Under the pieces are notes generated by a model. The model saw only the letters and a list, made by a program, of their open reading frames with translations, did no database searches and was not told the DNA's origin. The translations under genes and the position numbers were made by a program. Below, one piece after another: positions 1,327-58,669 of a stretch of DNA of 64,000 bases (position 1 is its first letter; the number at the start of each line of letters is the position of its first letter). This DNA is from Gammaproteobacteria bacterium (GTDB taxonomy: Bacteria; Pseudomonadota; Gammaproteobacteria; Eutrophobiales; Eutrophobiaceae): positions 258,520-322,519 of the forward strand of contig JBDNFW010000033.1 in assembly GCA_041689615.1 (NCBI GenBank), given 5' to 3'.

Positions 1327-1336
1327 AGAACTTATT

Positions 1337-9400: not shown

Positions 9401-10040
9401 CACCTGCCAACATAACGTCAGTACGTCCTGCAATTAGTTCATCAACTGCATATTTCAGGGAATAGAGAGAAGAAGAACAAGCCGCATCTAATGTGTAAGC
9501 GCCTGCTCCTAAGCCTAAAGCTTTTGCCAACAAACCACCCGGCAATCCGGCAACGTATCGATTTAATGGTTCTATCTTTTCTTTTCCATCATCCGAGTCG
9601 ATATTTAACTGTGCTTCAAAAAGGTGTTTAAATATTTCGTCACTAAAGAGAGATGATGACTCTGTGGGAAGCGCAATATTGCCAATGACAATACCAACAC
9701 GTTCTTTATTAATAGCATTAGTCTTCGCATCTGCCCAGGCATCCCGACCTGCATGTAATAAAATTTGATACATCGGATCCAGACGTTGAAGCAAAGAAGC
9801 ATCAACATTAAATCCAGCAGGATTAAATTCAAAATTTTGAATTAAACAAGCGCGACGTGAATTTACTTTATCCGGAGCTAATTCTTCAGAATACAATTCA
9901 TCAGCTTCTAGTCGCCAGCGATCTGCACCAACATTAATGGCAGTGTCCTTTGCATCAAGAATATTTTTCCAGAATTCATCAAGATCACTAGAACCAGGAA
10001 AAACGCCACCAATACCAACAATTGCTATTCGTTCTGCCAT
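3468..10040 (-). CDS. pfaC: PUFA synthase subunit with fused PfaB/PfaC architecture: KS, CLF, acyltransferase (GYSLGE) and two FabA-like DH domains
   Basis: 2190 aa. KS Cys context DAACSSSLYSL. A second KS-like (CLF) domain lacks the active-site Cys. AT motif VIGYSLGETAGF. Two FabA-type hotdog domains (HFVDDRVMPGTLM; AHFYEDPVWPGSLG). Confidence 0.9.
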   Translation of the reverse strand: MAERIAIVGIGGVFPGSSDLDEFWKNILDAKDTAINVGADRWRLEADELYSEELAPDKVNSRRACLIQNFEFNPAGFNVDASLLQRLDPMYQILLHAGRDAWADAKTNAINKERVGIVIGNIALPTESSSLFSDEIFKHLFEAQLNIDSDDGKEKIEPLNRYVAGLPGGLLAKALGLGAGAYTLDAACSSSLYSLKYAVDELIAGRTDVMLAGGLSRPDCLYTQMGFSQLNAISKSGRCSPFDSKADGLVVGEGAGIFVLKRLSDAIEQDDHIYATIEGIGLSNDIEGNIMSPDSEGQGRAMQSAYEMADWKPNQVQHIECHGTGTPVGDGVEFTSLKNLWQNHNVDGECVIGSVKSNVGHLLTAAGAAALMKTLLAMKHGVLPPTANYESPSNKIDLANSPFKVLNKAESWTIEDNTPRRAAISGFGFGGINAHVLLQEYKPKEKVTPVSTQSNSTQTDIAIVGMESRLGPWSNQQEFDQAVLFGSDMKLMPPNNWWGADSKECQGNLIEEVNVPLGRYRIPPAELKEMLPQQLLMLEVAANALEDAGLSELNAEQQCRTGVFIGIALDLNTTNFHFRWMQKKYASEWLKKLGVHLSGNDLFEWIENLKQAFGPALTANRTMGALGGIVASRIARAFHIGGPAFTVSSEETSGLRALESGVRALQLKELDQVIVGAVDIASDLRAVKGSVEQINNIADAATAFVLKRHEDAIRDGDNVYALIKGIGVASAGGCDIKPEQSAMITAIQNACSDAQCHLDAIDYISQSAGDDVINIPALQHAVTNAFPLGHSGAANGLMSVASSVSALHHCILPAENSGQARYWLKDSVKGARRALVNSTSIDGNCISVVLEQAQKQTQVNIDVKNITAKLFSLSADDKDSLISKIQSLSFDEVVEDKKEKYRVVLLINDEKEFNLAREETLAAIKSNNSIDNGRCYFSVSPLTENGKVAFVYPGSGNHFFGMGQELGIAFPGVLEKLNNENETLASQFAQGRFWQKDDGKELSHEEVIFGQVWLGTFISDVVASFAVKPDAVIGYSLGETAGFFSTRTWTARDEMLKRIQQSSLFTEELAGPCTSVQTAWGTEQPIDWALGVINTSEDKVKVVLEKFKHVYLLIINTPNECVIGGDKTELNNAIKELNAQYHPLSGVTTVHCEVARPVEKAYRDLHIFETTPPEDVTFYSGIRGGAYEVTQDSAADSILDQALAPFDYTKVINSAYEDGVRFFVEMGPGGSCTRMIDQILEDKAHYAKAVCVKGQNSVDNLLQILARLYVEGVDVNFSKLNINKEKQKTEYKNFISVKTGGEPFKVSAPPAKPDVIEHIQPKVKQSSVETINTSSSVTSLPMTANGDFQPMIQQMQLAEQARSEAQETFLRVSQGMTETITQAISMQMHLLNNTDDDLSQVTVRQEMPNKIDCLFDREQCMEFAVGSIGKMLGSEFADIDQYPTRVRLPDEPLMLADRILSVEGVADSLKDNPNTNGRVITEHDVLYDAWYLDLGRIPTCIAVEAGQADLFLSGYLGIDHIAKGLAVYRLLDAKITFHGPLPKAGETIHYDIRIEEFFRQDDTYLFRFNFEGSVNGEPLLTMTQGCAGFFTQQELDAGKGIVLTNMEKQQQQGVFTEDWKQLVAMQVESYSDEQLAVLREGNLAACFGESFNNIDLNNPVGLPSGRMTLVHRILKLDPNAGRFGIGQITGEADIHPDDWFLTCHFVDDRVMPGTLMYECCLHTLRVYLLRMGWIGEEDEFVYEPIIGEVSQLKCRGQVTEETKAVQYEITLKEIGYRDDGTPYVLADALMYGDHRAIVQMKNMSVQLTGLKRERLEALWEHKNTAETKQVLFDNESILAFAIGKPSEAFGDRYKIFDSERKIARLPGPPYKFLDRITSIKDCEQWVLKAGGIIEAKYDVPVDEWYFTEDNQPYMPFAVLLEVALQPCGWLAAYLGSALTSEVDISFRNLGGTATQYIKVTPEIGTLTTKVKMTSVSQSGGMIIQTYDYEMTSDQGLVYKGDTNFGFFSKQALADQIGIRDAKLYVPTELERSRGKSFVYPIDAPMPADMMRMVDDISLYDPEGGPNNLGFIEGTAKVKEEAWFFKAHFYEDPVWPGSLGLESFMQLLKVFAWERWQDELNIGEFAFESMALNQVHKWVYRGQILPVDEKVTIQAVITEIDDAEETIKADGFLTVDGRIIYQMKDFALRIT

Positions 10041-17128: not shown

Positions 17129-18817
17129 TTACTCAGATAAATAACTCTTAATTGTTTCTTGTTGCATAGGATGGAATTGCGTTAATGCAACAGGAAGTTC
17201 AACACCTTGCTTAAGCAAACCATTAATTCGATATAAAACAGCAGCACCAAATAAAATATTCATTGCCACAGTCACTGCATTTCTATTATTTGTTTCAGAT
17301 AAAAAAGTTTCGCGCGTCCATTCATTAAACGCTCCCATTGCTGGGCCACACCAAACTTGATAATCAACTTGGCGATCTTCAACGCCGGCATTTGCCCAAC
17401 GTGAAGACAGTCCTAAATACCATCGAAAAATTAATGCCATTTTATGTTTTGCATCTTTATGCGCTTTTTCAACTTGACGCGGATCTCGTTCAGTAAAAAA
17501 TTCTTCTGTCTTTTGCCATACTTCAGCTAATGACATTTTAAAAATTGTTTTTTCCAGATTCGCTTTTTCTGTTTCAGAAATTTCTTCTATCGATCCGTAT
17601 TTTTTATAAATGTCATAAAGCTTATTACCGCGCATCGCAAACATGGTGCCGCGTTTTAATACTTGTAACTTCACACCCATTTCAAACATATCTACTGCTG
17701 GTGCCATAGTGACGTCAGCTTGTTCTGCATTGGCTAACATTTCTCTAACAATGTCAGAGGAACCTGATTCTTTGCAGGCTTGATTAACAGTACCGGTAAC
17801 AATGTAAGCCGCACCCATAGCAAACGCACCTAATGCTGAAGCAGGTATTGCAATCCCTCCGGCAGCACCAACACGCAGTGGTTTTTCATAATTATGTTTT
17901 GCCTGATATTGATCGCGTAGTGATAACATCGTTGGTAATAATGTAATAGCAGGTCGATTGTCTGTATGACCACCCGAGTCAGCTTCGACCGTTAAGTCTT
18001 GCGCCATCGGAATATGTTTGGCCAAGTCTGCTTCTTCTTTTGTTATCGAACCCTGCTCTAATAATTTTTCCAATAATTTTTCAGGTGGAGGACTAAACCA
18101 TTTGCTTGCAAGCTCTACCCTCGATGCCTTAGCTATGATCCTATTAGGAACAATAATATTACCCTGCTTATCTTTATGAATTCCTTTCACTCGATAACGT
18201 ACAACTGGCAAAGTCAGTTTCATATAAGCAGATGTTTCAACCAGTGTAACTCCGTATTTTAAATAGAGATCAACAACCGCATCTTCATGTCCTATTTCAT
18301 TCGGGCTATAAATAAGGTTAAAGCAAAATGTTTTATCGCCTAAGGAAGTTTGCAGACGTTTAATTGCTGTTTCTATTTCAGTTAAAGACAAACCCGCTGC
18401 ACCGAATGATGCCAACATGCCTTCGCTTGCTAACGCTTCAACCAATTCAACAGAAGCAATGCCATTTGCCATTGAGCCTGCCATATAAGGATAATCAATT
18501 TGATAATCCTGACAAAAATTCTGATCACCTAAGGCTTTAATGGTTTGTGCCGAAGCAATGCCACGTAAACGATACTGTTTGTCGTCTTTTTGATAGTCAT
18601 CACCCTGACTATCAAACTGAATAGATCCACCCAAGGCAATTGCAGATCTGGATTTATTTTCAACTATACAAAATGGCACATCTAACTGATAAAGCTGTTC
18701 AGGCAATTTTTCCAAATCAGATAGACTAGCGCGACTATCCGATTGCCAAACATTTTGAGAATGACGCTTTGTTTCCGTCGAACGAGACGGACTAATAATT
18801 TCTGGTATGGAACTCAC
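17129..18817 (-). CDS. pfaD: PUFA synthase enoyl reductase PfaD (nitronate monooxygenase-like fold)
   Basis: 562 aa. YPYMAGSMANGIASVELVEALASEGMLASFGAAGL region is typical of PfaD-type ER. It lies upstream of and co-directional with pfaA. Confidence 0.85.
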   Translation of the reverse strand: MSSIPEIISPSRSTETKRHSQNVWQSDSRASLSDLEKLPEQLYQLDVPFCIVENKSRSAIALGGSIQFDSQGDDYQKDDKQYRLRGIASAQTIKALGDQNFCQDYQIDYPYMAGSMANGIASVELVEALASEGMLASFGAAGLSLTEIETAIKRLQTSLGDKTFCFNLIYSPNEIGHEDAVVDLYLKYGVTLVETSAYMKLTLPVVRYRVKGIHKDKQGNIIVPNRIIAKASRVELASKWFSPPPEKLLEKLLEQGSITKEEADLAKHIPMAQDLTVEADSGGHTDNRPAITLLPTMLSLRDQYQAKHNYEKPLRVGAAGGIAIPASALGAFAMGAAYIVTGTVNQACKESGSSDIVREMLANAEQADVTMAPAVDMFEMGVKLQVLKRGTMFAMRGNKLYDIYKKYGSIEEISETEKANLEKTIFKMSLAEVWQKTEEFFTERDPRQVEKAHKDAKHKMALIFRWYLGLSSRWANAGVEDRQVDYQVWCGPAMGAFNEWTRETFLSETNNRNAVTVAMNILFGAAVLYRINGLLKQGVELPVALTQFHPMQQETIKSYLSE

Positions 18818-19107
18818 TGTATTTAATCAATAAACTCTTCTGAATATGTAATGGCGGAAAGGACAATGCTTATTTATTTACATCCATCTGTTCTGATTGT
18901 AATGTGCGCGTCCTGAACAGCCCTAATTATTGAATAATATCATTTTTTTCGGGCAAAACCTTGTAGCATCGATGCTCTAAACGATTAAGATTTAGTGACT
19001 ACTTGTTCAAAATGAATGCTGAATTTAGTTATTTTGATGTGATTAACTAAAAAATAAAACCACAAAACATACTAAACCATTGTTTTTATAAGAGATATTT
19101 ATTTTTC

Positions 19108-20175
19108 ATGAAATCCAGAGAAGAATTTCAAACCAAACTTGATGACCTTGCCTATCAAAACAAGATTTTGCAGCATGTCTCTCGAACTTTTGCCTTAACT
19201 ATTCCGCAATTGCCTGAACCATTAAGCACGGTCGTAGCAAATGCCTACCTTTTGTGTCGTATTGCCGACACGATCGAAGATGATAAGAGCATGTCGGCTG
19301 AACAAAAAAAGGAATCTGCCGAGCTTTTTATCAAAGTTGTTAAGGAAAATGCTGAAGCTGAAGCATTTGCCGAAACCCTGTTTCCATTATTGTCACCGAC
19401 AGCAACTGAAGCTGAACATGATCTGATTTCCAATACGTCTCCTGTAATTAGAATTACTCACAGTTTCAATCAACGCCAACGCGCTGCTCTAGAACGTTGT
19501 GTCAAAATCATGGCCGATGGCATGGTAATGTATCAGGATGCTGAAACCCTTGATGGCGTTTCCGATCAGAGGGATATGGATCAATACTGTTATTACGTTG
19601 CGGGCGTTGTTGGCGAAATGTTGACTGAACTTTTCTGCGATCATTCGCCTGAAATCGATGCACATCGTGATGAGATGATGAAATTGGGAGTGTCATTTGG
19701 TCAGGGTTTGCAAATGACCAATATATTGAAAGATATCTGGGAAGATCATGAGCGCGGAGCTTGCTGGTTACCTCGCGATGTATTCGAAAAATACGGTATC
19801 GATATTCGTCATAAAGTACCAGGTAAAATGGGTGAAGGTTTTAATGAAGCTTTAATAGAATTGCTCGGTGTTGCCCATGCACATGTCTATAACGCTTTGC
19901 GCTATACTTTAATGATTCCCGAAAAAGAAAAAGGATTACGAAAATTCTGTTTGTGGGCCTTGGGTATGGCGGTATTAACTCTAGAAAAGATCAGACGACA
20001 GCCTGATTTCACGGAAGGTCAGCAAGTCAAAATCAGTCGTCGCAGTGTTAAAGTCACCCTCTTTTTGACAAGTCTTTTCGTTGGCCAAAATAGAATATTA
20101 AGTTATCTTTTCCAATTCAGTGGACGTCGTTTGCCTATGGCAAATATTCATGCGAAACTCTGCCAAAATCAGTGA
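19108..20175 (+). CDS. sqs: squalene synthase, single-enzyme eukaryote-like type
   Basis: 355 aa. SRTFALTIPQL...YLLCRIADTIEDD and YCYYVAGVVGEMLT match squalene/phytoene synthase motifs. It is the first gene of the hopanoid operon. Confidence 0.8.
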   Translation: MKSREEFQTKLDDLAYQNKILQHVSRTFALTIPQLPEPLSTVVANAYLLCRIADTIEDDKSMSAEQKKESAELFIKVVKENAEAEAFAETLFPLLSPTATEAEHDLISNTSPVIRITHSFNQRQRAALERCVKIMADGMVMYQDAETLDGVSDQRDMDQYCYYVAGVVGEMLTELFCDHSPEIDAHRDEMMKLGVSFGQGLQMTNILKDIWEDHERGACWLPRDVFEKYGIDIRHKVPGKMGEGFNEALIELLGVAHAHVYNALRYTLMIPEKEKGLRKFCLWALGMAVLTLEKIRRQPDFTEGQQVKISRRSVKVTLFLTSLFVGQNRILSYLFQFSGRRLPMANIHAKLCQNQ

Positions 20176-20274
20176 TATACATGACTATAACGCTGAAACA
20201 ACAAGGAGAATAAGGCGGCTTTCGACAGGGCAGTATGGTCTATCTGACTTCTTGCCCCACCTGTATTAAATAAC

Positions 20275-22221
20275 ATGACTTTTGAAACTAATAACGATAA
20301 TACGCCCAATCCAACGCTCGGAGAGTCGAACTCGAAGAAGCCTGCGATTAATTTAGACGAAGCGATTCAATCTGCTAAAAATAAATTACTCGAGCAACAA
20401 CAAGATGATGGGCATTGGGTCTATGAACTCGAAGCTGATTGCACTATTCCTGCTGAATATATATTAATGAATCATTTCGTCGATGAAGTCGATGATGATA
20501 CAGAACAAAAAATTGCCCAATACTTGCGTGACCAACAAAATGAAGATGGTGGTTGGTCGCTTTATACCGCTGGTGATTTTGATATTAGTTGTGCGGTAAA
20601 AAGCTACTACGCATTAAAAATCGTTGGTGATAATCCTCAAGAAGAACATATGGTCCGCGCAAGGAATATCATTTTAAATCATGGTGGCGCTGCTCGTAGT
20701 AATGTCTTTACCCGAATTTTGATGGCTCTGTTTCAACAAGTACCGTGGCGTGCGACACCTTTTATTCCGGCTGAAGTAATCATTCTTCCAAAGTGGTTTC
20801 CGTTTCATATCGACAAAGTATCTTATTGGTCACGTACAGTCATGGTGCCATTGTTTATTTTGTGCACCATAAAACCAAAAGCTGTAAACCCACGTGGTGT
20901 TGATATAAGAGAACTTTTTATAATACCGCCTGAAGATGAACAAAATTATTTTAAAGTAACAACTCCGCTGACTCGAGCGTTTCTAATACTCGACCACTTA
21001 GGTCGTTTAGCAGAAAAGATCGTACCTAAATTTGTACGACAATATTCTATTGATAAATGCGAACAATGGTCTCTTGCTCGAATGAACGAAGAATTTGGTA
21101 TCGGCGGTATTTTTCCTGCCATGGTTAATGTGTTTGAATCTTTAGTTATTCTTGGTTATAAAAAAGATCACCCGGCACGAATACAGGCACGACAAGCTAT
21201 TGATGCTTTACTAGTCAAGCGCGGTAACACGATGTATTGCCAACCTTGTGTTTCTCCTGTTTGGGATACTTGTTTAGCGGCGCAATCTCTTATCGAAACA
21301 GAAAATCAAAACGTCAGTACAGAAATAGAACATTCACTTGACTGGCTTAAGGATAGACAACTTAGCGATGAACCCGGTGACTGGCGCATCCCCAGAGCCA
21401 ATCTTGCTGGCGGCGGCTGGGCCTTTCAATATAGTAATTACTACTTCCCTGACCTCGATGATACTTCCATGGTGGCCTGGGCGATGCACAGAACTGGAAA
21501 TGATAAATATTCAGAACCGATTCAACGTGCAGCAAACTGGGTTGCCGGTATGCAATCGAATGGTGGTGGTTTCGGATCGTTTGAAGTAAATAACACGCAG
21601 TATTATTTAAACGCGATTCCTTTTGCGGATCATGGTGCTTTATTAGATCCACCCACAGCCGATGTGACCGGACGTGTTATTGCATTACTTAGTCTTGCCG
21701 ATAAAGAAAAATATAGCTCTGTTATTAAAGATGCGATTAATTTTATAAAATCTGATCAGGAAGAAGACGGTTCCTGGTTTGGTCGTTGGGGTACGAATTA
21801 TATATACGGCACCTGGTCGGTGCTAACCGCACTTGAACTTGCTGATGAAGATCTACAACAAGACTATATAAGAAAAGCTGTCTCGTATTTACAAGGCATG
21901 CAAAATGAAGATGGTGGTTGGGGCGAAAGTAATGATAGCTATTATCCTCCAAAACATTATCGTCCTTTTGAAAGCACCGCATACCAAACAGCATGGGCAT
22001 TACTTGCTTTATTGGCGGTTGGAGAAGCTGAAACAGAAACGGTTAGAAAAGGGATTGATTATTTGATCTCTAATCAATCCAATGATGGTCATTGGTATAA
22101 TGATAGTTATACTGCTCCAGGTTTTCCTCGCGTTTTCTATTTAAAATATCACGGCTACACAAAATATTTTCCGCTTTGGGCGTTAGCTCGTTACAGAAAC
22201 CTGTTGCACAATAAGGTTTGA
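20275..22221 (+). CDS. shc: squalene-hopene cyclase
   Basis: 648 aa. Multiple QxxxGxW (QW) repeats (QNEDGGW x3). DLDDTSMV matches the DxDDTA catalytic motif. Confidence 0.9.
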   Translation: MTFETNNDNTPNPTLGESNSKKPAINLDEAIQSAKNKLLEQQQDDGHWVYELEADCTIPAEYILMNHFVDEVDDDTEQKIAQYLRDQQNEDGGWSLYTAGDFDISCAVKSYYALKIVGDNPQEEHMVRARNIILNHGGAARSNVFTRILMALFQQVPWRATPFIPAEVIILPKWFPFHIDKVSYWSRTVMVPLFILCTIKPKAVNPRGVDIRELFIIPPEDEQNYFKVTTPLTRAFLILDHLGRLAEKIVPKFVRQYSIDKCEQWSLARMNEEFGIGGIFPAMVNVFESLVILGYKKDHPARIQARQAIDALLVKRGNTMYCQPCVSPVWDTCLAAQSLIETENQNVSTEIEHSLDWLKDRQLSDEPGDWRIPRANLAGGGWAFQYSNYYFPDLDDTSMVAWAMHRTGNDKYSEPIQRAANWVAGMQSNGGGFGSFEVNNTQYYLNAIPFADHGALLDPPTADVTGRVIALLSLADKEKYSSVIKDAINFIKSDQEEDGSWFGRWGTNYIYGTWSVLTALELADEDLQQDYIRKAVSYLQGMQNEDGGWGESNDSYYPPKHYRPFESTAYQTAWALLALLAVGEAETETVRKGIDYLISNQSNDGHWYNDSYTAPGFPRVFYLKYHGYTKYFPLWALARYRNLLHNKV

Positions 22222-22931
22222 GTAAGCTTGGTATTATTGCAGCCCTACCTGCTGAAGCAGCTTGTCTATATAATAAAAAACTAACTGTTCTTTCACCCAT
22301 AGAAATTCAGAAAGATGTCTTTTTGTGTTTATCAGGTATGGGGTATGAAGCAGCTTGTGGAGCTGCAAAAAAGTGTCTGGATTTCAAAGTAGATGCCTTA
22401 ATCAGTTGGGGGGTTGCTGGCGCAATAGAGTCTTCACTTAACTCGGGTGATTTAATTTTCGCTGATTCGATAATTGCTCAAGATAAAACTTTTCAAACAT
22501 CGACTGAATGGAAAAATAAATTACTGGCACACTTTCAGAAAACCCATACTAATGTGTTAAGTAGCGATATTGCTTCAAGTAAAGAGATATGTGCCTTAAC
22601 AACCGATAAAAATAATTTATTACATAAAACAGGCGCTGGCGCTGTCGATATGGAAAGTGCGGCTATTGCAGAAATAGCCATTAATAATCATCTCGATTTT
22701 TTGGTCATTCGTGCCATTGCTGACAAGGCTAATACCGTTATTCCAGAAGCGGTGTTAAAACACACAGATAATCTGGGCAATCCTGAAATATTAAAATTTG
22801 TATTGTCGTGTATTTTTAAGCCAGCACAAATTCGGGAGATTTTTATATTGGCAAAAAGCTACAAAATAGCTTTAAAAACATTAAGCAATATCGCCTCAGA
22901 TTTAAAAAAACAGAATTTCTTTTATACATAA
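22218..22931 (+). CDS. hpnG: hopanoid-associated phosphorylase (PNP/MTA nucleosidase family), HpnG-like
   Basis: 237 aa, N-terminus MSKLGIIAALPAEA. The TTG start overlaps the shc stop (gtTTGA). Hopanoid cluster context. Confidence 0.65.
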   Translation: MSKLGIIAALPAEAACLYNKKLTVLSPIEIQKDVFLCLSGMGYEAACGAAKKCLDFKVDALISWGVAGAIESSLNSGDLIFADSIIAQDKTFQTSTEWKNKLLAHFQKTHTNVLSSDIASSKEICALTTDKNNLLHKTGAGAVDMESAAIAEIAINNHLDFLVIRAIADKANTVIPEAVLKHTDNLGNPEILKFVLSCIFKPAQIREIFILAKSYKIALKTLSNIASDLKKQNFFYT

Positions 22932-23001
22932 CCTGGCCGCTTGTTATAAAATCTAAGCTGGTTTATAAGGAAACATAATCCCCCACTAGAAAGATATTAA
23001 T

Positions 23002-23748
23002 ATGAAAATAAGCAAAGAACAAATTGAAGAGTTTAAATCCACCGGCTTTCTCGTTATTCGTAAGTTGTACGATACGGAAAGAATGAAGGAAATTATTACC
23101 TGGACAGAAGAAGTACGCAATTATCCTGAAGTCCCTGGCAACGTCATGATGTATTTTGAACAGAGTAAATTAGAACCGGGAAAAAGAATTATATCCCGTA
23201 TAGAAGATGTCGAACCTTTCCATCAAGGATTCAGTGAGCTTTTTATGCGCGGTGAGATACAGCAAATTACATCTCAATTATTCGATGATAAGGCAATTTT
23301 GTTTAAGGATAAAATAAATTTCAAGATGCCGGGTGCAGATGGTTTCAAAGCGCATCAGGATGTACAGGCCGGCTGGGATCGTTATTCCAAGTTACATATC
23401 ACTGCTTTAGTAAGCGTTGATCCTTCCACCATTGAAAATGGCTGTCTGGAAGTGGCTAATGGTTATAATAATAAAGGACTTATAGGAGAACAGTGGGCAC
23501 CATTAGAAGAAGATGGCCTAGACTATATCGCACTACCAACAGAACCGGGTGATGCTGTTTTCTTTGATTCTTATGCCCCTCACCGTTCAAAAGCAAACCT
23601 GAGTAATGGTCAACGCCGCGTTCTGTATGTCACATACAACGCTGCGGCCGAAGGTGACCATCGTAGAAAATATTATGATGACAAACGTCTTAGCTATCCA
23701 CCAGACATTGAACGGGACACGGACAAAGAATACATATTCAGAGTTTAA
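23002..23748 (+). CDS. PhyH-family Fe(II)/2-oxoglutarate dioxygenase, uncharacterised, embedded in the hopanoid operon
   Basis: 248 aa. HQD (HxD) followed by a downstream His (APHRS) and an Arg, the typical phytanoyl-CoA dioxygenase facial triad arrangement. Confidence 0.6.
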   Translation: MKISKEQIEEFKSTGFLVIRKLYDTERMKEIITWTEEVRNYPEVPGNVMMYFEQSKLEPGKRIISRIEDVEPFHQGFSELFMRGEIQQITSQLFDDKAILFKDKINFKMPGADGFKAHQDVQAGWDRYSKLHITALVSVDPSTIENGCLEVANGYNNKGLIGEQWAPLEEDGLDYIALPTEPGDAVFFDSYAPHRSKANLSNGQRRVLYVTYNAAAEGDHRRKYYDDKRLSYPPDIERDTDKEYIFRV

Positions 23749-23763
23749 TCGATATAACTAAAA

Positions 23764-26388
23764 ATGAGTAAATCTCATTCATCATATCTAGATCGCTGGA
23801 TAATTAACTGGGTGCAATTCGTTGAGCGCTATCGAATTGCGATCATCATCAGCTTTGTCGCTCTCACTATTTTTTCAATTTTTTATATAAAAGATAACCT
23901 CGGTGTAAGTACAGATACAACCGACATGTTGTCGGAAGAACTGGCTTGGCGAAAACTTGATATTGAATACGAAAAACAATTTCCTCAATTTAATGACAAT
24001 GTTCTTGTTGTTATCGAATCAAACACGCCGGACCAAGCTACTGATACAGCAATAAAATTACATTCTGCTTTAAAAGAAAATCCTACATTAATTAGTAATA
24101 TTTATTATCCAAATTTATTACCTTATTTTCGTCAATCTGCTTTTTTATTTTTTGATGATGAAGAGTTACAAGATCTGGCAGATCAATTAGCAACCATACA
24201 AGCCTTTCTAGGAACCTTATTACAAGATAAAAATTTACGTGGCTTATTCACTATGTTGACTGATGCACTTCAGTACAAAGTGGATGGCGAAAAGATTGAA
24301 TTGAAACCACTATTACTAGAAATCAATCATGCATTAGAAAATGAAAAATATAATGTCTCATGGCAACATTTGATGAGTTCAGATAAAAGTCTAAAACCTG
24401 TTTATCGAGAATTTATCGTGTTACAAACGCTAGAGTCTGAAGAAGAACTTTTGCCCGGCCAAGATGTCCTCGCGCATATAAGAACCGTTATCAATTCACT
24501 TTCTTTGAATAATGAATCTGTACGGATACGTTTAACCGGTGGTACCGCACTGTCCTATGAAGAATTAAAAAGTGTTTCCGAAGCAAATATTCAAGCTATT
24601 GTTATTTCATTCATTCTGGTCGCCATTATTTTACTGATTGGTCTAGGCTCAGTCTGGCTGGTAGTGGCATCACTCATCACACTAATTTTCGGCTTAACTG
24701 CAACTACGGCTTTCGCGGCAGCAACTGTAGGCGAACTTAATCTTATTTCCGTTGCCTTTGCTGTGTTGTACATCGGTCTTGGTATTGATTTCACCATACA
24801 TTTGATATTACGTTATCGTGAACAAGTTATTTTATCGGGAGAACCTAATAATGCATTGAAAATATCAATGTCTTATATTTTTCGCTCTTTAATACTCTGC
24901 TCCATCACAACCGCGATTGGTTTTTATTCATTTATACCAACGGACTATCAAGGTGTAGCTGAACTCGGCTGGATTGCAGGCAGCGGCATGTTCATCAGTA
25001 TTCTTTTCACATTGACCTTATTACCTGCTTTATTAAGTTTAAAGCCTTACAAAGAAAGAGAAAAAACGAATAACCGTGGAAATCATTTAATTACTTTTTT
25101 AACCACCCTGCCCTACAAATATTCAAAACAGATATTAATATTTACACTCATTATTTTAATTGGGTTTATTAGCCAACTCTATAGAGTTAGTTTTGATATA
25201 AATACGCTTAACTTGCAAGATCCTGAAAATGAATCGGTGCAAACCTATCGTGATTTATTAAAAGACAGTGATTCTTCGCCTTGGAGCAGTGTTTTATTAA
25301 AAGAAAGTAGAAGTGAGGCTATCGCCGCGATAAAAGAAATTGAACAACTTGATTTGGTTGACAAGGTTATATGGTATGAAGATTTACTTCCTGAAGATCA
25401 AGAAGATAAATTATTCATTATTGATGAAATAAATCTATTTATGGGAATACTCTCTACAGACGAGACAAACGCAGAGATAAATAACAGCGATAGAATAAAT
25501 GCCATACAAAAACTTATAACAAAATTAGATTATTTTTCCAGTCATGAATTAGAGTCGAATCCTGAGCTATATAGCGAAATTAGAACACTAAAAACATATT
25601 TATCTATAATTCTAGATAACTCTTCTGATAACAAAAATTTATTGTCACTAGAAAAACAATTACTATCTAATCTTGATGGTCGAATTCATTCGTTGAACGA
25701 TGCTTTAAACGCCGAACAAGTCGAACTCAGTGATATCCCTGCGATTGTTCATGATAGATGGGTAAGTCATAAACACTATAAAATAGAAATTTTTCCAAGA
25801 GAAGATTTGAACGATAACGCAGCAATGGAACGTTTCGTTAACCAACTACAAGCCTATGATAATACCGTTATTGGTTCTCCTATTATTAATATTGAAGCGG
25901 GTAGTGCCGTCATCACTGCCTTCAAAACTGCACTCACTTATGCCTTAATTGCTATTGCATTATTGCTACTTGTTTTAATAAAACGGAAATCGGATGCGGT
26001 AATTATCCTAATCTCAGTACTCGTTGGCGCTGTTTTTACATTTGGCTTTATGTTGATATTTAATATCCCGCTTAACTTTGCCAATATTATTGGGCTCCCT
26101 TTATTACTTGGTATCGGCGTAGACAGTGGTATTCATATTGCTGATCGATTTCGTCAGGAACAAGGAACCAATAAAAATATTTTTATGACCAGCTCTTCTC
26201 GTGGCGTCATTGTCAGTTCTTTAACAACTATTTGCAGCATTGGCAACCTCGCTTTTTCTTCTCATACGGGTACGGCCAGCATGGGATTGCTATTAACTTT
26301 AGGTCTTGCCTCAATGATGATATCAACTATGATGATCCTTCCTGCCTTTCTTATATGGCAAAATTTATTGAAAAAAATAGCTTTATGA
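23764..26388 (+). CDS. hpnN: RND-superfamily (MMPL-like) hopanoid transporter, HpnN-like
   Basis: 874 aa. Two 6-TM bundles with large periplasmic loops. Hopanoid cluster context. Confidence 0.75.
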   Translation: MSKSHSSYLDRWIINWVQFVERYRIAIIISFVALTIFSIFYIKDNLGVSTDTTDMLSEELAWRKLDIEYEKQFPQFNDNVLVVIESNTPDQATDTAIKLHSALKENPTLISNIYYPNLLPYFRQSAFLFFDDEELQDLADQLATIQAFLGTLLQDKNLRGLFTMLTDALQYKVDGEKIELKPLLLEINHALENEKYNVSWQHLMSSDKSLKPVYREFIVLQTLESEEELLPGQDVLAHIRTVINSLSLNNESVRIRLTGGTALSYEELKSVSEANIQAIVISFILVAIILLIGLGSVWLVVASLITLIFGLTATTAFAAATVGELNLISVAFAVLYIGLGIDFTIHLILRYREQVILSGEPNNALKISMSYIFRSLILCSITTAIGFYSFIPTDYQGVAELGWIAGSGMFISILFTLTLLPALLSLKPYKEREKTNNRGNHLITFLTTLPYKYSKQILIFTLIILIGFISQLYRVSFDINTLNLQDPENESVQTYRDLLKDSDSSPWSSVLLKESRSEAIAAIKEIEQLDLVDKVIWYEDLLPEDQEDKLFIIDEINLFMGILSTDETNAEINNSDRINAIQKLITKLDYFSSHELESNPELYSEIRTLKTYLSIILDNSSDNKNLLSLEKQLLSNLDGRIHSLNDALNAEQVELSDIPAIVHDRWVSHKHYKIEIFPREDLNDNAAMERFVNQLQAYDNTVIGSPIINIEAGSAVITAFKTALTYALIAIALLLLVLIKRKSDAVIILISVLVGAVFTFGFMLIFNIPLNFANIIGLPLLLGIGVDSGIHIADRFRQEQGTNKNIFMTSSSRGVIVSSLTTICSIGNLAFSSHTGTASMGLLLTLGLASMMISTMMILPAFLIWQNLLKKIAL

Positions 26389-27371
26389 AGACATTAGTCA
26401 CAGGCGCAAATGGATTCATTGGCTCTGCTGTCGCACGCTTATTATTAGATAAAGGTCATGACGTACGCGTATTAGTTCGCCCTAACTCAGACAAGCGTAA
26501 CTTTGAAGGACTTGAGCTCGAAATAATTGAAGGTGATTTAAACGATAATGAATCCTTAAAACGTGCTGTTTCTGGCTGTAACACACTCTTTCATCTCGCT
26601 GCTGATTATCGTTTATGGATACCTGATCCAGATAACATGTACAAAACAAATGTTGATGGTACACGTAACCTTATTATTGCCGCAACTGAAGCTAACGTAG
26701 ATAAAATTGTTTATACCAGCAGTGTTGCTACTCTGGGAATAAATAAAGATGGGACGGCTTCTGATGAAACAACACCTGTTTCACTTGAAGAGATGACCGG
26801 TCATTACAAGCGCTCTAAATTTTTAGCAGAACAAGAAGTCAATAAACTCATAAAAGAACAATCTTGTCCTGTCACCATTGTGAATCCTTCGACGCCAGTT
26901 GGTCCACGAGATATTAAACCGACACCAACGGGAAAGATCGTGCTCGACACGATTCGCCATCGCATGCCGGCTTATGTCGACACCGGTTTGAATATCGTTC
27001 ACGTAGATGATGTTGCAAAAGGACATCTACTGGCGATGGATAAAGGCGAAATTGGAGAGCGATATATTCTCGGCGGCGATAATATGACCTTGGCATCGAT
27101 ACTGGAATATATCTGCGTCAGTCAGGGTATGTCTCCACCAACAATTAAATTACCGCATAATCTGGTATTACCCATTGCCTGGTTTATGGAACGTATTGCT
27201 AATATCACACATAAAGAACCTAGAGCCACGGTTGATAGTGTCAAAATGTCGAAAAAAATGATGTTCTTTTCAAGTGAAAAAGCAAAAGAAAAACTGGGAT
27301 ACCAATCACGTCCAGGTATTGAAGGTTTTAAGGATGCTATCGATTGGTTTAATGCAGAAAACTACTCTTAA
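26385..27371 (+). CDS. hpnA: NAD-dependent epimerase/dehydratase, HpnA-like
   Basis: N-terminus MKTLVTGANGFIGSAVARLL (Rossmann fold). The ATG overlaps the hpnN stop (ATGA). The 26232 start in the ORF track is an over-extension. Confidence 0.75.
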   Translation: MKTLVTGANGFIGSAVARLLLDKGHDVRVLVRPNSDKRNFEGLELEIIEGDLNDNESLKRAVSGCNTLFHLAADYRLWIPDPDNMYKTNVDGTRNLIIAATEANVDKIVYTSSVATLGINKDGTASDETTPVSLEEMTGHYKRSKFLAEQEVNKLIKEQSCPVTIVNPSTPVGPRDIKPTPTGKIVLDTIRHRMPAYVDTGLNIVHVDDVAKGHLLAMDKGEIGERYILGGDNMTLASILEYICVSQGMSPPTIKLPHNLVLPIAWFMERIANITHKEPRATVDSVKMSKKMMFFSSEKAKEKLGYQSRPGIEGFKDAIDWFNAENYS

Positions 27372-27410: not shown

Positions 27411-27453
27411 AAAAAAAGCCTTTCCTAAAAACACAACGTATTTTTAGGAAAGG
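27411..27453 (-). terminator. rho-independent terminator hairpin (13-bp perfect stem cctttcctaaaaa/tttttaggaaagg), followed by a T-run on the minus strand and preceded by an A-run
   Basis: Perfect inverted repeat at 27419-27453 in the convergent spacer between hpnA and the minus-strand MnhD-like gene. Confidence 0.5.
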
Positions 27454-27622: not shown

Positions 27623-29293
27623 TTAAAGCAGAAAATAAGATAAGGAAATAATAAATACCACCATGATTAATCCCATACCCATTGCCAGAGAAAACTGAAT
27701 ATTTAATTTATTATCAACATAGTGACCAAGTTTCAAACCTGAATATTTATGACTTATGCCACTTTGAAGCAGACAAAGCTTCTTCAAAATACAATCTGAG
27801 ATTGTTTTGCCAAACTTTCTGTAAAACCAATCAAAATCAAGACTGATGGTTAATGTTCTTTTCATTAATGGCAACATGACAAAGAAAGCTAGACCTGAAA
27901 ACAAAAGCAACTGTAGTTGTGTCAATGTATGTGCTGCAGTGTATGGTACATAATTCACTTCATAAGGTAGCATTGCATATAACAAATTTGGAAAAACACC
28001 CAACAAAATACAGATGACCGCAAAAAATATCATACCCATCTGCATATTAAGCGGAGGATCATCTGGTCTCAAACCACTGTCTTTCTGAAAGAAAACAAAC
28101 CACGGAAATTTAATACCTGCATGTAAAAACACACCGGCGGAAGCTGCTTGCAACAGTAACCACACCCATAATAAATGTTCATCAACAGAAGCCTGCGTCA
28201 CCATAGACTTACTAACAAAGCCGGAGGTAAGAGGAAAAGAAGAAATCGCTAACGCACCGATAATCCCACAGACAGCAGTAACGGGCATAGTCTGAATTAA
28301 GCCGCCTAAATCAGTACATTTACGTTTACCGGTCATATATAAAACAGATCCGGCAGACATTAATAATAAAGCTTTATATATAATGTGTGTAAATGCATGA
28401 GCTGCAGCACCATTTAATGCCATCTCGGTACCAATGCCGATACCACAAAGCATGAACCCCACCTGATTAATAATGCTATAGGCAAGAATTCGACGCATAT
28501 CATTTTCAAGTAAGGCGTAAATGATCCCGTAAAAAATCATAAATAAACCGATATACACTAATAACTCTGTTCCGGGAAAACCTCTCAACAAAACATACAC
28601 TGCAGTTTTCGTCGTAAAGGCACTTAGAAACACAGTGCCACTAAATGAAGCTTCAGGATAAGCATCGGCCAACCATGCTGTTAATGGTGGTGCGCCTGCA
28701 TTTAATAAAAAGCCGCAAAGGATTAGCCACGTCGCAATACTATTAGGTTGCATCGCTGTAAATAATATTGAACCAGTTTCATTAACGTAGGCTGATATAC
28801 CGCACATCAATATGACACCACCTAATAAATGAATAACGATATAACGCATACCCGCTCGTCGAGAATTTTCATTCTGTGCCGACCAGATAACCAGTGTTGA
28901 AGATAATGCCATCAATTCCCAGAAAATAAACAACGTCAGAAGATCGCCTGCAAGTACGACAGACATCGCACCACCGGCATAAATAAAAGCTGCAGCTAAT
29001 TCTTTTGAACTAGCTTGCTTACAGCAAAACAAGCTTCCGGTGAAAACAGTAATAGAAAATACTGTAATAAATAATCGACTCAGTGCATCAAGATTAATAA
29101 GTGTTAATTCGAATCCAAGATATTGAATCGAACAAGCCGAACCAAATGACATATCCCAGACACTGGCTAAAGCTAGACAGGGAATTAATAAAACGAAGAG
29201 TGTTCTTTTTGTTCCATGTAAAAAAGGAATTAATAAGCCTGATAAGATTAGTAACAAACCTGGATGAAATAAACTACATGTCATAGTAATCAT
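27623..29293 (-). CDS. MnhD/NuoN-family proton-pumping antiporter-like membrane subunit
   Basis: 556 aa polytopic protein. WLADAYPEAS and TKTAVYVLLR resemble MrpD/NuoN motifs. Confidence 0.65.
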   Translation of the reverse strand: MITMTCSLFHPGLLLILSGLLIPFLHGTKRTLFVLLIPCLALASVWDMSFGSACSIQYLGFELTLINLDALSRLFITVFSITVFTGSLFCCKQASSKELAAAFIYAGGAMSVVLAGDLLTLFIFWELMALSSTLVIWSAQNENSRRAGMRYIVIHLLGGVILMCGISAYVNETGSILFTAMQPNSIATWLILCGFLLNAGAPPLTAWLADAYPEASFSGTVFLSAFTTKTAVYVLLRGFPGTELLVYIGLFMIFYGIIYALLENDMRRILAYSIINQVGFMLCGIGIGTEMALNGAAAHAFTHIIYKALLLMSAGSVLYMTGKRKCTDLGGLIQTMPVTAVCGIIGALAISSFPLTSGFVSKSMVTQASVDEHLLWVWLLLQAASAGVFLHAGIKFPWFVFFQKDSGLRPDDPPLNMQMGMIFFAVICILLGVFPNLLYAMLPYEVNYVPYTAAHTLTQLQLLLFSGLAFFVMLPLMKRTLTISLDFDWFYRKFGKTISDCILKKLCLLQSGISHKYSGLKLGHYVDNKLNIQFSLAMGMGLIMVVFIISLSYFLL

Positions 29294-29513
29294 CCTTACG
29301 CTTAATCAAGAAACCTAATACTTTTGCAAAAATGACCATTGCGACACAAGTTAGAAAACCATAGATCGCATGAAATACAAAAAAACCTTCTACTTTAAAA
29401 TGTGGATGCAACACCACGAAAACTTCGGCCAACACAGTTAATGCCAGAATAACAATGGCACCTATCCATAATTTTTTAATTGATGACTTTCTATAGAACC
29501 AGTTTTGATTCAT
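29274..29513 (-). CDS. small 2-TM membrane protein (possible Mrp accessory subunit)
   Basis: 79 aa, hydrophobic. Overlaps its neighbours by 4 and 20 nt, which suggests translational coupling. Confidence 0.35.
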   Translation of the reverse strand: MNQNWFYRKSSIKKLWIGAIVILALTVLAEVFVVLHPHFKVEGFFVFHAIYGFLTCVAMVIFAKVLGFLIKRKDDYYDM

Positions 29514-30976
29514 ATCATATTACCTGCCAGCAGTTGAACCAGTTGTAATGGAACTTCAGGAAATAAAAATAATAATACTGTCATTATTGCTGTAAATGTT
29601 AAGGCAAAAACAATAGCTAATGGTGCTTCACTGTAACTAAGTTCTTTGCCATCAACTGGTTTTTTAAAAAATGCAGCATAAATTATTGGCAAAAAATATC
29701 CTGCGTTTAATAAGGTACTGATGACAATAACTGTTATTGCAAAATAGGACTCAACTTCGAATGCGCCCTGTAGAATATACCATTTACTTAAAAAACCTGC
29801 TGTAGGCGGGACACCTATCATCGATAAACTGGCAATAGCAAAAGCACCCATCGTCCAGGGCATTGCTTTTCCTATACCATTAAGTTCACTCACAGCAGTT
29901 TTTTTCGTTGCCGTATAGATTGATCCGGCGGCAAAGAACAAAGTAATTTTACCAAACGCATGAGCAAGAATATGAAGTGCTGCACCCATTATAGATATCG
30001 GTGCCAGTAATGCCGTTGCTAATATGACATAAGATAATTGACTAATGGTTGAATAAGCCAAGCGACGTTTTAGATTGTCCGCTTGTAAGGCAATAATCGA
30101 AGCAACAATAATAGTCATGCCAGCTAGATAAAGCAGAACATTCACTTCAATCATTTCGGCCAATAAAGCAGGACTAAATATATAAGTCACAATCTTAACA
30201 ATACTAAAGACACCCGCTTTCACGACCGCAACCGCATGCAATAAAGCACTTACCGGGGTGGGAGCCACCATTGCCGCCGGTAACCAACGGTGCATAGGCA
30301 TTAATGCCGCTTTACCTATTCCGTAAGCAAACAACATTAATAAAATTAATATCACACAATGCCCAATATCATTATTCAAAATACCACCGTTGGTAAATTC
30401 GGTCGTGCCAGCCAACACATTCGTCCAGATAATAGCTGGCAGAAAAAAACAGATTGATGTTGAAAGAAGAACGCCTAAATAAACGCGGCCAGCACGCATC
30501 GCATCTTCACTACCTTTATGCGTTACCAGTGGATAAGTTGACAGCGTTAACGCTTCATAAAAAACAAATAATGTAATTAAGTTTGCCGAGAATGCAATCC
30601 CTATCGTGCTGGCAATGGCTATAGCAAAACAAATATAAAAGCGAGTTTGATGCTTTTCCTTATTACCACGCATATAACCGATAGAATAAATTGAGTTTAT
30701 TAACCATAAAAATGAAGCGATACAGGCGAACAACATGCCTAATGGTTCAATCTTGAAATGAATTGCAAGACCAGGCAAAAACTCTAATAAATGTAATTGT
30801 GGTTGTTCACCATTCAATACTTTTTGCAATAATGCATAAACGACGAAGATTAAACAAACAGAGCTAATTAATGTAACTGCTTCTCTGAGATTAATACTAT
30901 TATGAGTAGCCACAATAAAAACCGTCGCTATAACAGGAATACATAAAGCCAGTGTGATTAATAATTGATCGCTCAT
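29510..30976 (-). CDS. MnhD/NuoM-family antiporter-like subunit
   Basis: 488 aa. WLPAAMVAPTPVSALLHAVAVVKAG is an MrpD/NuoM hallmark. Confidence 0.7.
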   Translation of the reverse strand: MSDQLLITLALCIPVIATVFIVATHNSINLREAVTLISSVCLIFVVYALLQKVLNGEQPQLHLLEFLPGLAIHFKIEPLGMLFACIASFLWLINSIYSIGYMRGNKEKHQTRFYICFAIAIASTIGIAFSANLITLFVFYEALTLSTYPLVTHKGSEDAMRAGRVYLGVLLSTSICFFLPAIIWTNVLAGTTEFTNGGILNNDIGHCVILILLMLFAYGIGKAALMPMHRWLPAAMVAPTPVSALLHAVAVVKAGVFSIVKIVTYIFSPALLAEMIEVNVLLYLAGMTIIVASIIALQADNLKRRLAYSTISQLSYVILATALLAPISIMGAALHILAHAFGKITLFFAAGSIYTATKKTAVSELNGIGKAMPWTMGAFAIASLSMIGVPPTAGFLSKWYILQGAFEVESYFAITVIVISTLLNAGYFLPIIYAAFFKKPVDGKELSYSEAPLAIVFALTFTAIMTVLLFLFPEVPLQLVQLLAGNMI

Positions 30977-30978
30977 GA

Positions 30979-32463
30979 TTATTTAGTAAATAAATCTTTA
31001 GCGATGGCATTAGCCATATCAACATTAAAAGAAGAATCAAGTCCAAAATAAATATTGGCAACAACAAATAGAGATAATGCAAAAAATAATAAGTATGGCG
31101 TTTTCTGATCTTTATCTAATACGATAATTTCTTTTTCAGATGTTTTAAAATAAGCAACCTCAACAAACTTCCAGATATACATAATGGCTAACACAGATGA
31201 AAAAACAATAACTATCACGAGACCCCAGTAACCCGCTTCAAATGATGCTTTAATCAAGTACCATTTACTAACAAAACCAGCTGTCATGGGTACGCCGATC
31301 AAACTTAATCCGGAAATGAGAAAAGAAAGCATCAGTAAAGGCATTTTTTTAGCCAAACCTGCAAGCTGAGAAATTGAATCCGTCTTGCTATAAAAGATGA
31401 TTGTGACTACCGATAAAAACAGGGTTACTTTAATAATGGCATGATTAAAAATATGAATCAGGCCAGCAGCAAGTCCTGCTTCGGTTGCCAATGAAATACC
31501 TAATAACATATAGCCCAATTGCGCAATACTGGAATAAGCTAATAAACGTTTCAAACTATCTTGTTTAATTGCCAAATAAGAGCCATATAAAATTCCAGCA
31601 CAGGCTAATATCATTAATAAATAATTCAATGTCTCCTGAAAAAAGACATAGTCATGGCCAAATGTTGAATAAATAAATCTTATAAGAACATAGATAAAAA
31701 CTTTGGTCGTCGTGCCTGCAAGAAAAGTAGAGACTATTGACGGCGAATAGCTATAAGCATCGGGCAACCATAAATGCAGAGGAAAAATAGCAGCTTTTAT
31801 TCCAATACCTATGACAAAAAATACCAACGCTATCGTTAATGTCTTCGTATTTTCAACATCTGGCAAACGTTGAAATATATCCGCCATATTTAATGTGCCG
31901 GTAACAACATAAAGTAACCCAACAGCGATCAAAATAAAACTGGCGCCAATCGTTCCATAGATAAGATATTTAAAAGCAGCATATAAACAACGCTTATCTT
32001 TGCCAATACTAATCATAGCGTAAGATGATAGTGAAGCTATTTCTATAAAGACAAATAAATTAAACGCATCACCAGTCATAATGACGCCCAATAAACCGGT
32101 CAAATTTAACAAGAACGCCGTGTAAAATAAATAAAGACGATCAGATGAAATTTCATTCGCAATACTCGCTTTTGCACCGAGCAAAACAATTGCGGCGACA
32201 CCATTAACAATGAGCAACATAAATACCGTCAGCTTATCTAGCCGATATTCAATCCCCCAGGGACTAAGCCAACCACCAAGCGCATATGAAATAACACCTT
32301 CAGTTAAAACTTGGTCAAATAAAATGCAAGAGATAACAAAGGATAAGACACTAACCAGTGCTGTTAACAACCAACTTAATGTACCTTGACGTAAAATGAC
32401 ACATAAGGGTGCAGCTATTAAAGGTACAATTACTTGTAATACAGGCAAATGAGAACTAATCAC
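30979..32463 (-). CDS. MnhD/NuoM-family antiporter-like subunit (GTG start)
   Basis: 494 aa. WLPDAYSYSPSIVSTFLAGTTTKV is an MrpD/NuoM hallmark. Confidence 0.7.
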   Translation of the reverse strand: MISSHLPVLQVIVPLIAAPLCVILRQGTLSWLLTALVSVLSFVISCILFDQVLTEGVISYALGGWLSPWGIEYRLDKLTVFMLLIVNGVAAIVLLGAKASIANEISSDRLYLFYTAFLLNLTGLLGVIMTGDAFNLFVFIEIASLSSYAMISIGKDKRCLYAAFKYLIYGTIGASFILIAVGLLYVVTGTLNMADIFQRLPDVENTKTLTIALVFFVIGIGIKAAIFPLHLWLPDAYSYSPSIVSTFLAGTTTKVFIYVLIRFIYSTFGHDYVFFQETLNYLLMILACAGILYGSYLAIKQDSLKRLLAYSSIAQLGYMLLGISLATEAGLAAGLIHIFNHAIIKVTLFLSVVTIIFYSKTDSISQLAGLAKKMPLLMLSFLISGLSLIGVPMTAGFVSKWYLIKASFEAGYWGLVIVIVFSSVLAIMYIWKFVEVAYFKTSEKEIIVLDKDQKTPYLLFFALSLFVVANIYFGLDSSFNVDMANAIAKDLFTK

Positions 32464-56118: not shown

Positions 56119-56140
56119 GTGTTTATTCTTTAATAAATAA

Positions 56141-58363: not shown

Positions 58364-58669
58364 TTAACCCTTCATTGTTCCAAGATCATCAACATTGATA
58401 GAATTTTTCTTACGGAATAAAACGATGAGAATAGCCAAACCAATCGCAGATTCAGCTGCAGCCACCGTCAATATAAAAAAGACAAATACTTGTCCATGAA
58501 TATCGCCAAGAAAATGAGAAAAAGCGATAAAGTTCATGTTCACGGAAAGCAACATCAATTCAACACACATTAGTAATATAAGAATGTTTTTTCTATTTAG
58601 AAAAATACCTGCAACACTGATACAAAATAACAGTGCTGCTAATGATAAGACTTCAGGTAAAGTAATCAT
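58364..58669 (-). CDS. nuoK: NADH-quinone oxidoreductase subunit K
   Basis: 101 aa, 3 TM. Confidence 0.9.

Follow-up and report, generated by a model that had tools for sequence, protein, structure and literature searches.

How a bacterium could make hopanoids from a gene cluster that holds neither the usual squalene-forming genes hpnC, hpnD and hpnE nor the side-chain gene hpnH is the question raised by a locus in an uncultured, AT-rich gammaproteobacterium of the lineage Eutrophobiaceae (assembly GCA_041689615.1). We analyzed a stretch of 64,000 nucleotides from its contig JBDNFW010000033.1 (positions 258,520 to 322,519), here called the window, in which sqs, shc, hpnG, a PhyH-family oxygenase gene (phyH), hpnN and hpnA follow one another on the plus strand (Table 1). 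Family models, conserved residues and the gene arrangements of relatives indicate that this region is very probably one operon of a two-locus hopanoid pathway. As far as sequence comparison can tell, the hopanoid operon is intact, largely ordinary and of a known type, with a bacterial squalene synthase (Sqs) in place of the usual HpnCDE enzymes. What is new here is the conservation of the PhyH-family oxygenase in hopanoid clusters, together with the genomic contexts of its relatives, and a conserved noncoding block between sqs and its divergent neighbor pfaD.

A preliminary description of this DNA had read the gene order as sqs-shc-hpnG-dioxygenase-hpnN-hpnA, and the family models agree with it on both the order and the gene identities. 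The intergenic gaps, in order from sqs to hpnA, are 99, -4, 70, 15 and -4 nt, a spacing that fits a single operon, and the six genes are presumably transcribed together. The TTG start codon of hpnG overlaps the shc stop codon as TTGA. For hpnA, the list of open reading frames begins at a TTG at 26232, and the TIGR03466 model begins at residue 52 of that frame; the family model, the sequence itself and the gene calls in relatives all place the start at the ATG at 26385, in a 4-nt overlap with the hpnN stop codon (ATGA). From this start, ATGAAGACATTAGTCACAGGCGCAAATGGA encodes M-K-T-L-V-T-G-A-N-G, and the Rossmann motif VTGANGF is visible in the protein. HpnN, which passes its TIGR03480 model, scores under the cutoff of the stricter model NF052374 (584 versus 1100). 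Catalytic motifs are intact throughout the cluster, and purifying selection acts on each of the six genes, at ratios of nonsynonymous to synonymous substitution rates (dN/dS) of 0.03 to 0.2 that are approximate only, dS being above 1 in every comparison.

In the pathway that we propose, Sqs would condense two farnesyl diphosphates and reduce the presqualene diphosphate to squalene; it would do both steps in one enzyme, so that hpnCDE would not be needed. Shc would cyclize squalene to diploptene and diplopterol. HpnH, which would be encoded elsewhere in the genome as in the dxs-divergent hpnH-hpnB-hpnM-mlaA-like operon of relatives, would add a 5'-deoxyadenosyl group to diploptene, and the HpnG of the window would then remove adenine to leave ribosylhopane, the precursor of the C35 bacteriohopanepolyols (BHPs). 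HpnN would export hopanoids towards the outer membrane, with HpnA, a member of the short-chain dehydrogenase/reductase (SDR) family, and the PhyH-family Fe(II)/2-oxoglutarate (2OG) oxygenase as putative accessory tailoring enzymes. Transcription of the operon would run divergently from a polyunsaturated fatty acid (PUFA)-synthase/olefin operon, across a conserved noncoding control region. The lipid products, and likewise the role of PhyH, are predictions from gene content.

The comparison that suggests itself is with the classical hpn clusters of Rhodopseudomonas palustris, Zymomonas and Burkholderia, which are arranged as hpnC-D-E-F(shc)-G-H with hpnN and hpnA nearby. The window shares with them the adjacency of shc and hpnG, the presence of hpnN and hpnA in the cluster, and the downstream logic by which HpnH and then HpnG would lead through ribosylhopane to BHPs. 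It differs in using one Sqs rather than HpnC, HpnD and HpnE, in the position of hpnH, which in relatives is found outside the cluster, grouped with hpnB, hpnM and an mlaA-like gene at another locus, and in the extra PhyH-family oxygenase between hpnG and hpnN. A classical single-locus cluster would hold hpnH and hpnC/D/E; among the 36 open reading frames of the window that reach 150 aa, all of which were scanned, none encodes HpnH (a radical-SAM protein), HpnC, HpnD, HpnE or any of HpnI, J, K, O, P and R.

That a lone Sqs-type enzyme stands in the place usually held by hpnCDE had been noticed at the outset, and the evidence for it is consistent. The PF00494 domain spans residues 21 to 312 of the 355-aa protein. 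The preliminary description had proposed checking whether the protein groups with phytoene synthases; squalene synthases score best both among the NCBIfam models, where TIGR01559 (squal_synth) reaches 124 bits, HpnD 75, and HpnC and CrtB 45 each, and among solved structures, where squalene synthases match at 1e-21 to 1e-17, phytoene synthase at 3e-15 and CrtM at 1e-10. The recognizable motifs are DTIED at residues 54-58, YCYYVAGVVG at 160 and DIWED at 209-213, and the first of these Asp-rich motifs (D54-T-I-E-D58) is invariant in 20 homologues. A DTxxD motif is the signature of Sqs, with DDxxD found in the carotenoid-type enzymes CrtB and CrtM and in HpnC/D (Santana-Molina et al., PMC7306690). 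The same study inferred a bacterial origin for Sqs, with frequent lateral transfer that includes Gammaproteobacteria, a group in which it described Sqs as an alternative to HpnCDE (PMC7306690). The window protein resembles the bacterial Sqs clade, which extends over Beta- and Gammaproteobacteria, Cyanobacteria and others (PMC7306690), in its DTxxD motif, in matching squalene synthases best and in adjoining a triterpene cyclase gene; at ~60% identity this bacterial family takes in Nitrosomonas, Thiomargarita and many gammaproteobacterial metagenome-assembled genomes (MAGs).

The cyclase that follows is equally well defined. Both cyclase domains match (PF13249 and PF13243), QW repeats are present, and the protein aligns end to end with the squalene-hopene cyclase (SHC) of Alicyclobacillus acidocaldarius (1gsz, 434 bits). 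A proper alignment of the DxDDTA motif had been named as a check that could overturn the assignment; in it, DLDDTS (residues 393-398) sits on the catalytic DVDDTA of the solved enzyme (D374, D376 and D377). Ser in place of Ala is usual for this group, being found in 28 of 39 related loci.

For the HpnG-like protein, TIGR03468 is by far the best model, with the runner-up at 102 bits. The protein carries the conserved MTAN-like residues E14, D145-M146-E147 and D170. Of these, E14, M146-E147 and D170 align with E12, M173-E174 and D197 of MTAN, the residues with catalytic roles in the Escherichia coli enzyme. There is no deviation at columns that are at least 85% conserved among 49 homologues, which include copies adjoining hpnH, and dN/dS is ~0.12 to 0.2, a rough value given that dS is saturated.

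Where, then, might HpnH be encoded? A motif search for the radical-SAM signature of HpnH turned up the gene within 10 kb of sqs in just four relatives, all of them distant (L047, L051, L068 and L070). With the HpnH proteins of distant relatives, and then that of a closer one, as queries, we placed hpnH in relatives that share the synteny of the window. One of these carries HpnH P0248 and Sqs P0053, the latter 74% identical to the window Sqs and in the same synteny, on a single contig of 2,852,178 bp, with hpnH at 306,995-328,134 and the sqs cluster at 438,479-459,534, ~120 kb apart. HpnH P0215 and Sqs P0054 match in the length of their longest contig (487,306 bp), as do HpnH P0321 and Sqs P0050 (2,210,108 bp), making three relatives, with 72 to 74% Sqs identity and the same synteny, in which hpnH lies on the sqs contig. 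A second hopanoid locus is conserved in relatives (L084, L086-L093 and L104-L108), with dxs divergent from hpnH-hpnB-hpnM and an mlaA-like gene and, in most of them, glycolate-oxidase-like genes next. In one relative the products of this locus pass the curated cutoffs (HpnH at 552 bits, HpnB at 385 versus 379 and HpnM at 185 versus 160). Published surveys point the same way as to gene co-occurrence, with HpnG reported only in genomes that have SHC and HpnH (PMC12324291), and hpnA, hpnB and hpnM reported absent from genomes without hpnH (PMC12583986). We infer, with good support, that hpnH is present elsewhere in this genome. The preliminary description had remarked that hpnG is present without hpnH and that the side-chain genes must lie elsewhere or be absent; the first part is true of the window, and the three syntenic relatives favor the former of the two outcomes.

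Several observations weigh against the two-locus pathway and should be set beside this evidence. Sqs, whose activity is assigned by sequence comparison, scores under the equivalog cutoff of TIGR01559 (124 versus 287 bits), and the absence of hpnCDE holds for the 64-kb window only. HpnG is under its curated cutoff as well (166 versus 187) and evolves 2 to 3 times faster than its neighbors; in the comparison across loci L001-L014, HpnG at L004 is 57% identical, versus 85% for SHC and PhyH. In the closest clade, with at least 81% Sqs identity, Sqs P0018 and the HpnH proteins P0246 and P0313 come from nonoverlapping samples, and no hpnH link was found there. The Sqs score can be accounted for, as TIGR01559 is built mainly on eukaryotic squalene synthases; missing its cutoff speaks against the label "eukaryote-type," not against Sqs activity. 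That label, which the preliminary description had used, is a misnomer for a member of a large bacterial Sqs family: by the curated model the protein is no orthologue of the eukaryotic enzymes, and no C-terminal membrane anchor region aligns.

That the protein is instead a carotenoid-type synthase (a dehydrosqualene/phytoene synthase or an HpnD-like enzyme), with squalene supplied by hpnCDE encoded elsewhere, is highly improbable, for although the low equivalog score and the Joint Genome Institute (JGI) annotation of several relatives as 4,4'-diapophytoene synthase would suit it, squalene synthases are its top-scoring model and top-scoring group of solved structures, its first motif is the Sqs-specific DTxxD and not DDxxD, in dozens of genomes sqs immediately precedes shc without hpnC/D/E nearby, and hpnCDE-type clusters (L132 and others) are without any Sqs. 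We also consider it improbable that the organism makes C30 hopanoids only, with no hpnH, with diploptene and diplopterol as its products and with an hpnG-like gene that has drifted to another nucleoside or is decaying. A window without hpnH, and an HpnG that scores below its cutoff and is the fastest-evolving protein of the cluster, are what such a history would leave behind. A decaying gene, however, is difficult to square with an intact HpnG that keeps all family-wide conserved residues under the dN/dS given above, nor does the loss of hpnH agree with its place on the same contig in three syntenic relatives or with the reported restriction of hpnA and hpnG to genomes that contain hpnH. The two-locus pathway is the reading that we retain.

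The distribution of the cluster speaks to its age. A protein search gave hundreds of close homologues, the best 92% identical and none identical, labeled as Thiotrichaceae or Gammaproteobacteria MAGs. A scan of species-representative genomes gave at least 600 candidate stretches, with 579 of 600 confirmed as relatives, and the best 80 of the 579 come for the most part from gammaproteobacterial MAGs, with Nitrosomonas, Thiomargarita and members of a few further phyla as the remainder. The order sqs-shc-hpnG-(phyH)-hpnN-(hpnA) recurs in ~35 of these loci, and the full arrangement, with pfaA-pfaD divergent from sqs through hpnA and mrp beyond, is kept down to ~71% Sqs identity (relatives at 71 to 92%). 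Parts of the cluster are optional, with phyH lacking in L005 and hpnA lacking after hpnN in L003, L014 and L085. Loci with the cluster range from 32% to 69% GC; in the window, the GC content of the cluster is 0.384, the same as that of the whole window, and in GC3 the cluster resembles neighboring housekeeping genes. This GC range, the matching composition and the old synteny together argue that the cluster is not confined to AT-rich genomes and was not acquired recently. The preliminary description had called hopanoid clusters uncommon in AT-rich gammaproteobacteria and had raised a horizontal origin. The first claim gives way to the dozens of species-level gammaproteobacterial genomes, at 32 to 69% GC, that carry sqs-shc-hpnG(-phyH)-hpnN-hpnA, and recent horizontal transfer was rejected on the equal GC content of cluster and window and on the age of the synteny.

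A gene of this cluster that merits closer attention is phyH. Its triad, H118-x-D120 and H194, and its 2OG-binding R205 are invariant across 19 orthologues and align with the solved PhyH-family enzymes 7e01 and 7dzz. The closest solved relatives are all small-molecule hydroxylases, namely 7e01/7dzz, EctD and a leucine hydroxylase, and among NCBIfam models that of the methylphosphonate hydroxylase PhnY* (NF052437) comes closest, with a score of 177 bits for the protein, under the cutoff of 500. With PhnY/PhnY* and related PhyH-family hydroxylases (EctD and GriE) it has in common the HxD...H facial triad, the 2OG-binding Arg and a full-length alignment to the PhnY* model, and sister clades of the window PhyH occur in 2-aminoethylphosphonate (AEP) clusters. 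It differs from PhnY/PhnY* in lying far under the equivalog cutoff and in sitting in hopanoid operons without phosphonate genes nearby. Within the cluster, phyH is the most conserved gene and has the lowest dN/dS (0.03 to 0.05), and it is kept between hpnG and hpnN in ~20 genome loci and ~20 metagenome loci.

To test the link with hopanoids from the PhyH side, we scanned metagenome contigs with the PhyH alignment. All relatives with at least 59% identity whose flanks are visible on the contig lie between hpnG and hpnN. At 52 to 58% identity, the contexts diversify. Some relatives stand directly upstream of hpnB-hpnC-hpnD-hpnE-shc (L132 and ~12 others, among them L134, L151 and L153). Others adjoin genes for phosphoenolpyruvate (PEP) mutase, phosphonopyruvate decarboxylase and AEP transaminase (L167, L158, L159 and L181), and still others (L154 and L160) belong to an array of aminotransferase, glycerophosphotransferase-like, phosphoethanolamine (PEtN)-transferase-like and YidC-like genes beside lipopolysaccharide (LPS)-core genes. 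Taken over all loci, 31 contexts are hopanoid, 8 phosphonate, 1 both and 40 uninformative. In a neighbor-joining tree, which carries no support values, the window clade and the phosphonate/LPS clade are sisters, and the hpnCDE-type hopanoid clade branches outside them. Plasmid-borne PhyH homologues in Rhizobium rhizogenes are flanked by a cytidylyltransferase gene and a LicD gene. These contexts suggest that what the family modifies is not the hopane rings but envelope-lipid head groups of a polar, aminoalkyl or phosph(on)ate-like kind, and for the window PhyH the most likely substrate would be a polar side chain or head group.

Whether phyH serves hopanoids at all is the point on which an alternative survives best. 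The gene may be a passenger unrelated to hopanoids that serves a phosphonate or other small-molecule pathway, a possibility that we hold to be rather doubtful. It draws on methylphosphonate hydroxylase being the closest curated model, on the relatives at 52 to 58% identity that adjoin phosphonate or LPS-decoration genes, and on otherwise identical clusters without phyH, such as those of the close relative L005 and of L010 and L012. A passenger would not, however, be expected to sit between hpnG and hpnN in every relative of at least 59% identity with visible flanks, or to be under stronger constraint than any other gene of the operon, and the window contains no phosphonate genes. With the second, more distant group directly upstream of hpnB-hpnC-hpnD-hpnE-shc, the hopanoid association is seen in two different architectures of the cluster, and this speaks against a passenger.

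A survey from 2025 states that the genes for the formation of bacteriohopanepentol and -hexol (BHpentol/hexol) and for BHP desaturation are unidentified, with no candidates near alphaproteobacterial hpn clusters (PMC12583986). As BHpentol/hexol genes are still missing, the PhyH oxygenase is a reasonable but unproven candidate. Our literature search found no paper that ties PhyH to hopanoids, and the single paper that names both turned out to be about ectD. We therefore offer as a tentative proposal that the PhyH oxygenase is a previously unrecognized hopanoid-tailoring enzyme that modifies BHPs at their polar side chain or head group, for example as the missing BHpentol/hexol hydroxylase, and, as a part of the same proposal, that the block between pfaD and sqs might be an operator shared by polyunsaturated-lipid and hopanoid synthesis.

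Table 1. Features of the hopanoid operon and its surroundings, in window coordinates
Feature	Coordinates	Strand	Basis or remark
sqs, predicted one-enzyme squalene synthase of the bacterial Sqs clade, 355 aa	19108-20175	+	PF00494 SQS_PSY, 198 bits
shc (hpnF), squalene-hopene cyclase, 648 aa	20275-22221	+	TIGR01507, 789 bits vs cutoff 431
hpnG-like nucleoside phosphorylase/nucleosidase, PNP_UDP_1, 237 aa	22218-22931	+	TIGR03468, 166 bits vs cutoff 187
PhyH-family Fe(II)/2-oxoglutarate oxygenase, 248 aa	23002-23748	+	PF05721
hpnN, RND-type hopanoid transporter, 874 aa	23764-26388	+	TIGR03480, 842 bits vs cutoff 752; PF03176 MMPL
hpnA, hopanoid-associated SDR/epimerase-family protein, 328 aa from ATG	26385-27371	+	TIGR03466, 504 bits vs cutoff 368
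Conserved noncoding block, ~150 nt, in the 290-bp pfaD-sqs spacer	18840-18995		Conserved far beyond synonymous sites among relatives
pfaD, enoyl reductase of PUFA synthase, divergent neighbor	17129-18817	-	TIGR02814, 638 bits vs cutoff 449
pfaA	10079-16843	-	TIGR02813 PfaA, 1689 bits
pfaC/B-like fusion	3468-10040	-	KS-AT-2xFabA domains
oleA-like	2259-3458	-	PRK09258 KAS III, 484 bits
oleB-like	1337-2221	-	Haloalkane-dehalogenase-like alpha/beta hydrolase
Partial oleC	3-1331	-	Olefin beta-lactone synthetase, 537 bits
Hairpin, perfect 16-bp stem, between convergent hpnA and mrp-like operon	27419-27453		Called as minus-strand terminator; A-run on plus side, T-run only on minus strand
psd	50615-51502		23 kb from hpnA

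On the other side of sqs, the divergent placement of the hopanoid cluster relative to a PUFA/olefin array, which had been part of the preliminary description, is borne out by pfaD-pfaA-pfaC/B-oleA-oleB-oleC on the minus strand. This contiguous same-strand arrangement of pfa and ole genes suggests a dedicated polyunsaturated-hydrocarbon operon. A pfa plus oleABCD system in Shewanella, reportedly the subject of work by Sukovich and colleagues in 2010, is said to make a polyunsaturated C31 hydrocarbon from genes at separate loci. The window resembles that system in combining a PUFA synthase (pfaA, pfaC/B and pfaD) with homologues of oleA, oleB and oleC, and differs from it in having pfa and ole side by side in a single array on one strand, which diverges from the hopanoid operon.

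The spacer between the two operons contains the conserved block, whose core reads TTGTAATGTGCGCGTC ... CTAAT..TTGAATAATATCATTTTTT and which includes a TTACA-N16-TGTAA inverted repeat. The 16-mer TTGTAATGTGCGCGTC occurs once in the window and is exact in every relative in which pfaD adjoins sqs, even at 71% Sqs identity, a distance at which dS is saturated. It is tempting to think of an RNA element, but Rfam gave no match on the whole window, nor on the intergenic region at a relaxed threshold, and RNAalifold on the conserved block gave -0.6 kcal/mol with no covariation, that is, an essentially unstructured sequence. An RNA element was rejected on these grounds, and the lack of a conserved fold favors a site that acts at the level of DNA. 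A general hopanoid-regulon motif was likewise rejected, as the 16-mer and the block are absent from the hpnH loci; they are also absent from sqs clusters that do not adjoin pfaD. A promoter scan found fewer sigma-70-like matches than in shuffled sequences, so that no reliable promoter call can be made from it. The block is probably a promoter/operator for one or both of the divergent operons.

The co-localization of three membrane-lipid pathways, as first described, stands in part. The adjacency of the hopanoid cluster to pfa/ole is real and conserved, but psd is separated from the cluster by Mrp-like, NhaD and chemotaxis operons, with nothing linking it to the cluster, and its distance from hpnA had been put at 25 kb rather than 23. 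Directly downstream of hpnA, and convergent to it, are three consecutive genes for Proton_antipo_M (MrpD/NuoL-like) subunits (27623-32463, minus strand), and the adjacency of hpnA and the mrp-like genes is kept in relatives. The hairpin between them may act as a bidirectional terminator. A separate nuo operon occupies 53171-63955. The che operon includes a gene for a 1060-aa chemoreceptor (42154-45336, minus strand) in which a globin domain at the N terminus is combined with several PAS domains, a HAMP domain and an MCP signaling domain, which makes it a globin-coupled sensor.

Hopanoids are major geological biomarkers, and it therefore matters which marine bacteria make them and by which genes. 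Our analysis points to an abundant group of uncultured gammaproteobacteria with what looks like a complete hopanoid toolkit, one that would be based on Sqs and, as relatives suggest, divided between two loci. Searches for clusters that expect hpnH or hpnCDE beside shc would misjudge this group. The conserved oxygenase provides a practical lead, as a concrete candidate for a hopanoid side-chain modification that is still unassigned. That a conserved control region pairs the hopanoid operon tightly with the PUFA/olefin operon, in an arrangement kept among relatives, is a hint that these bacteria may regulate membrane-ordering and membrane-fluidizing lipids jointly.

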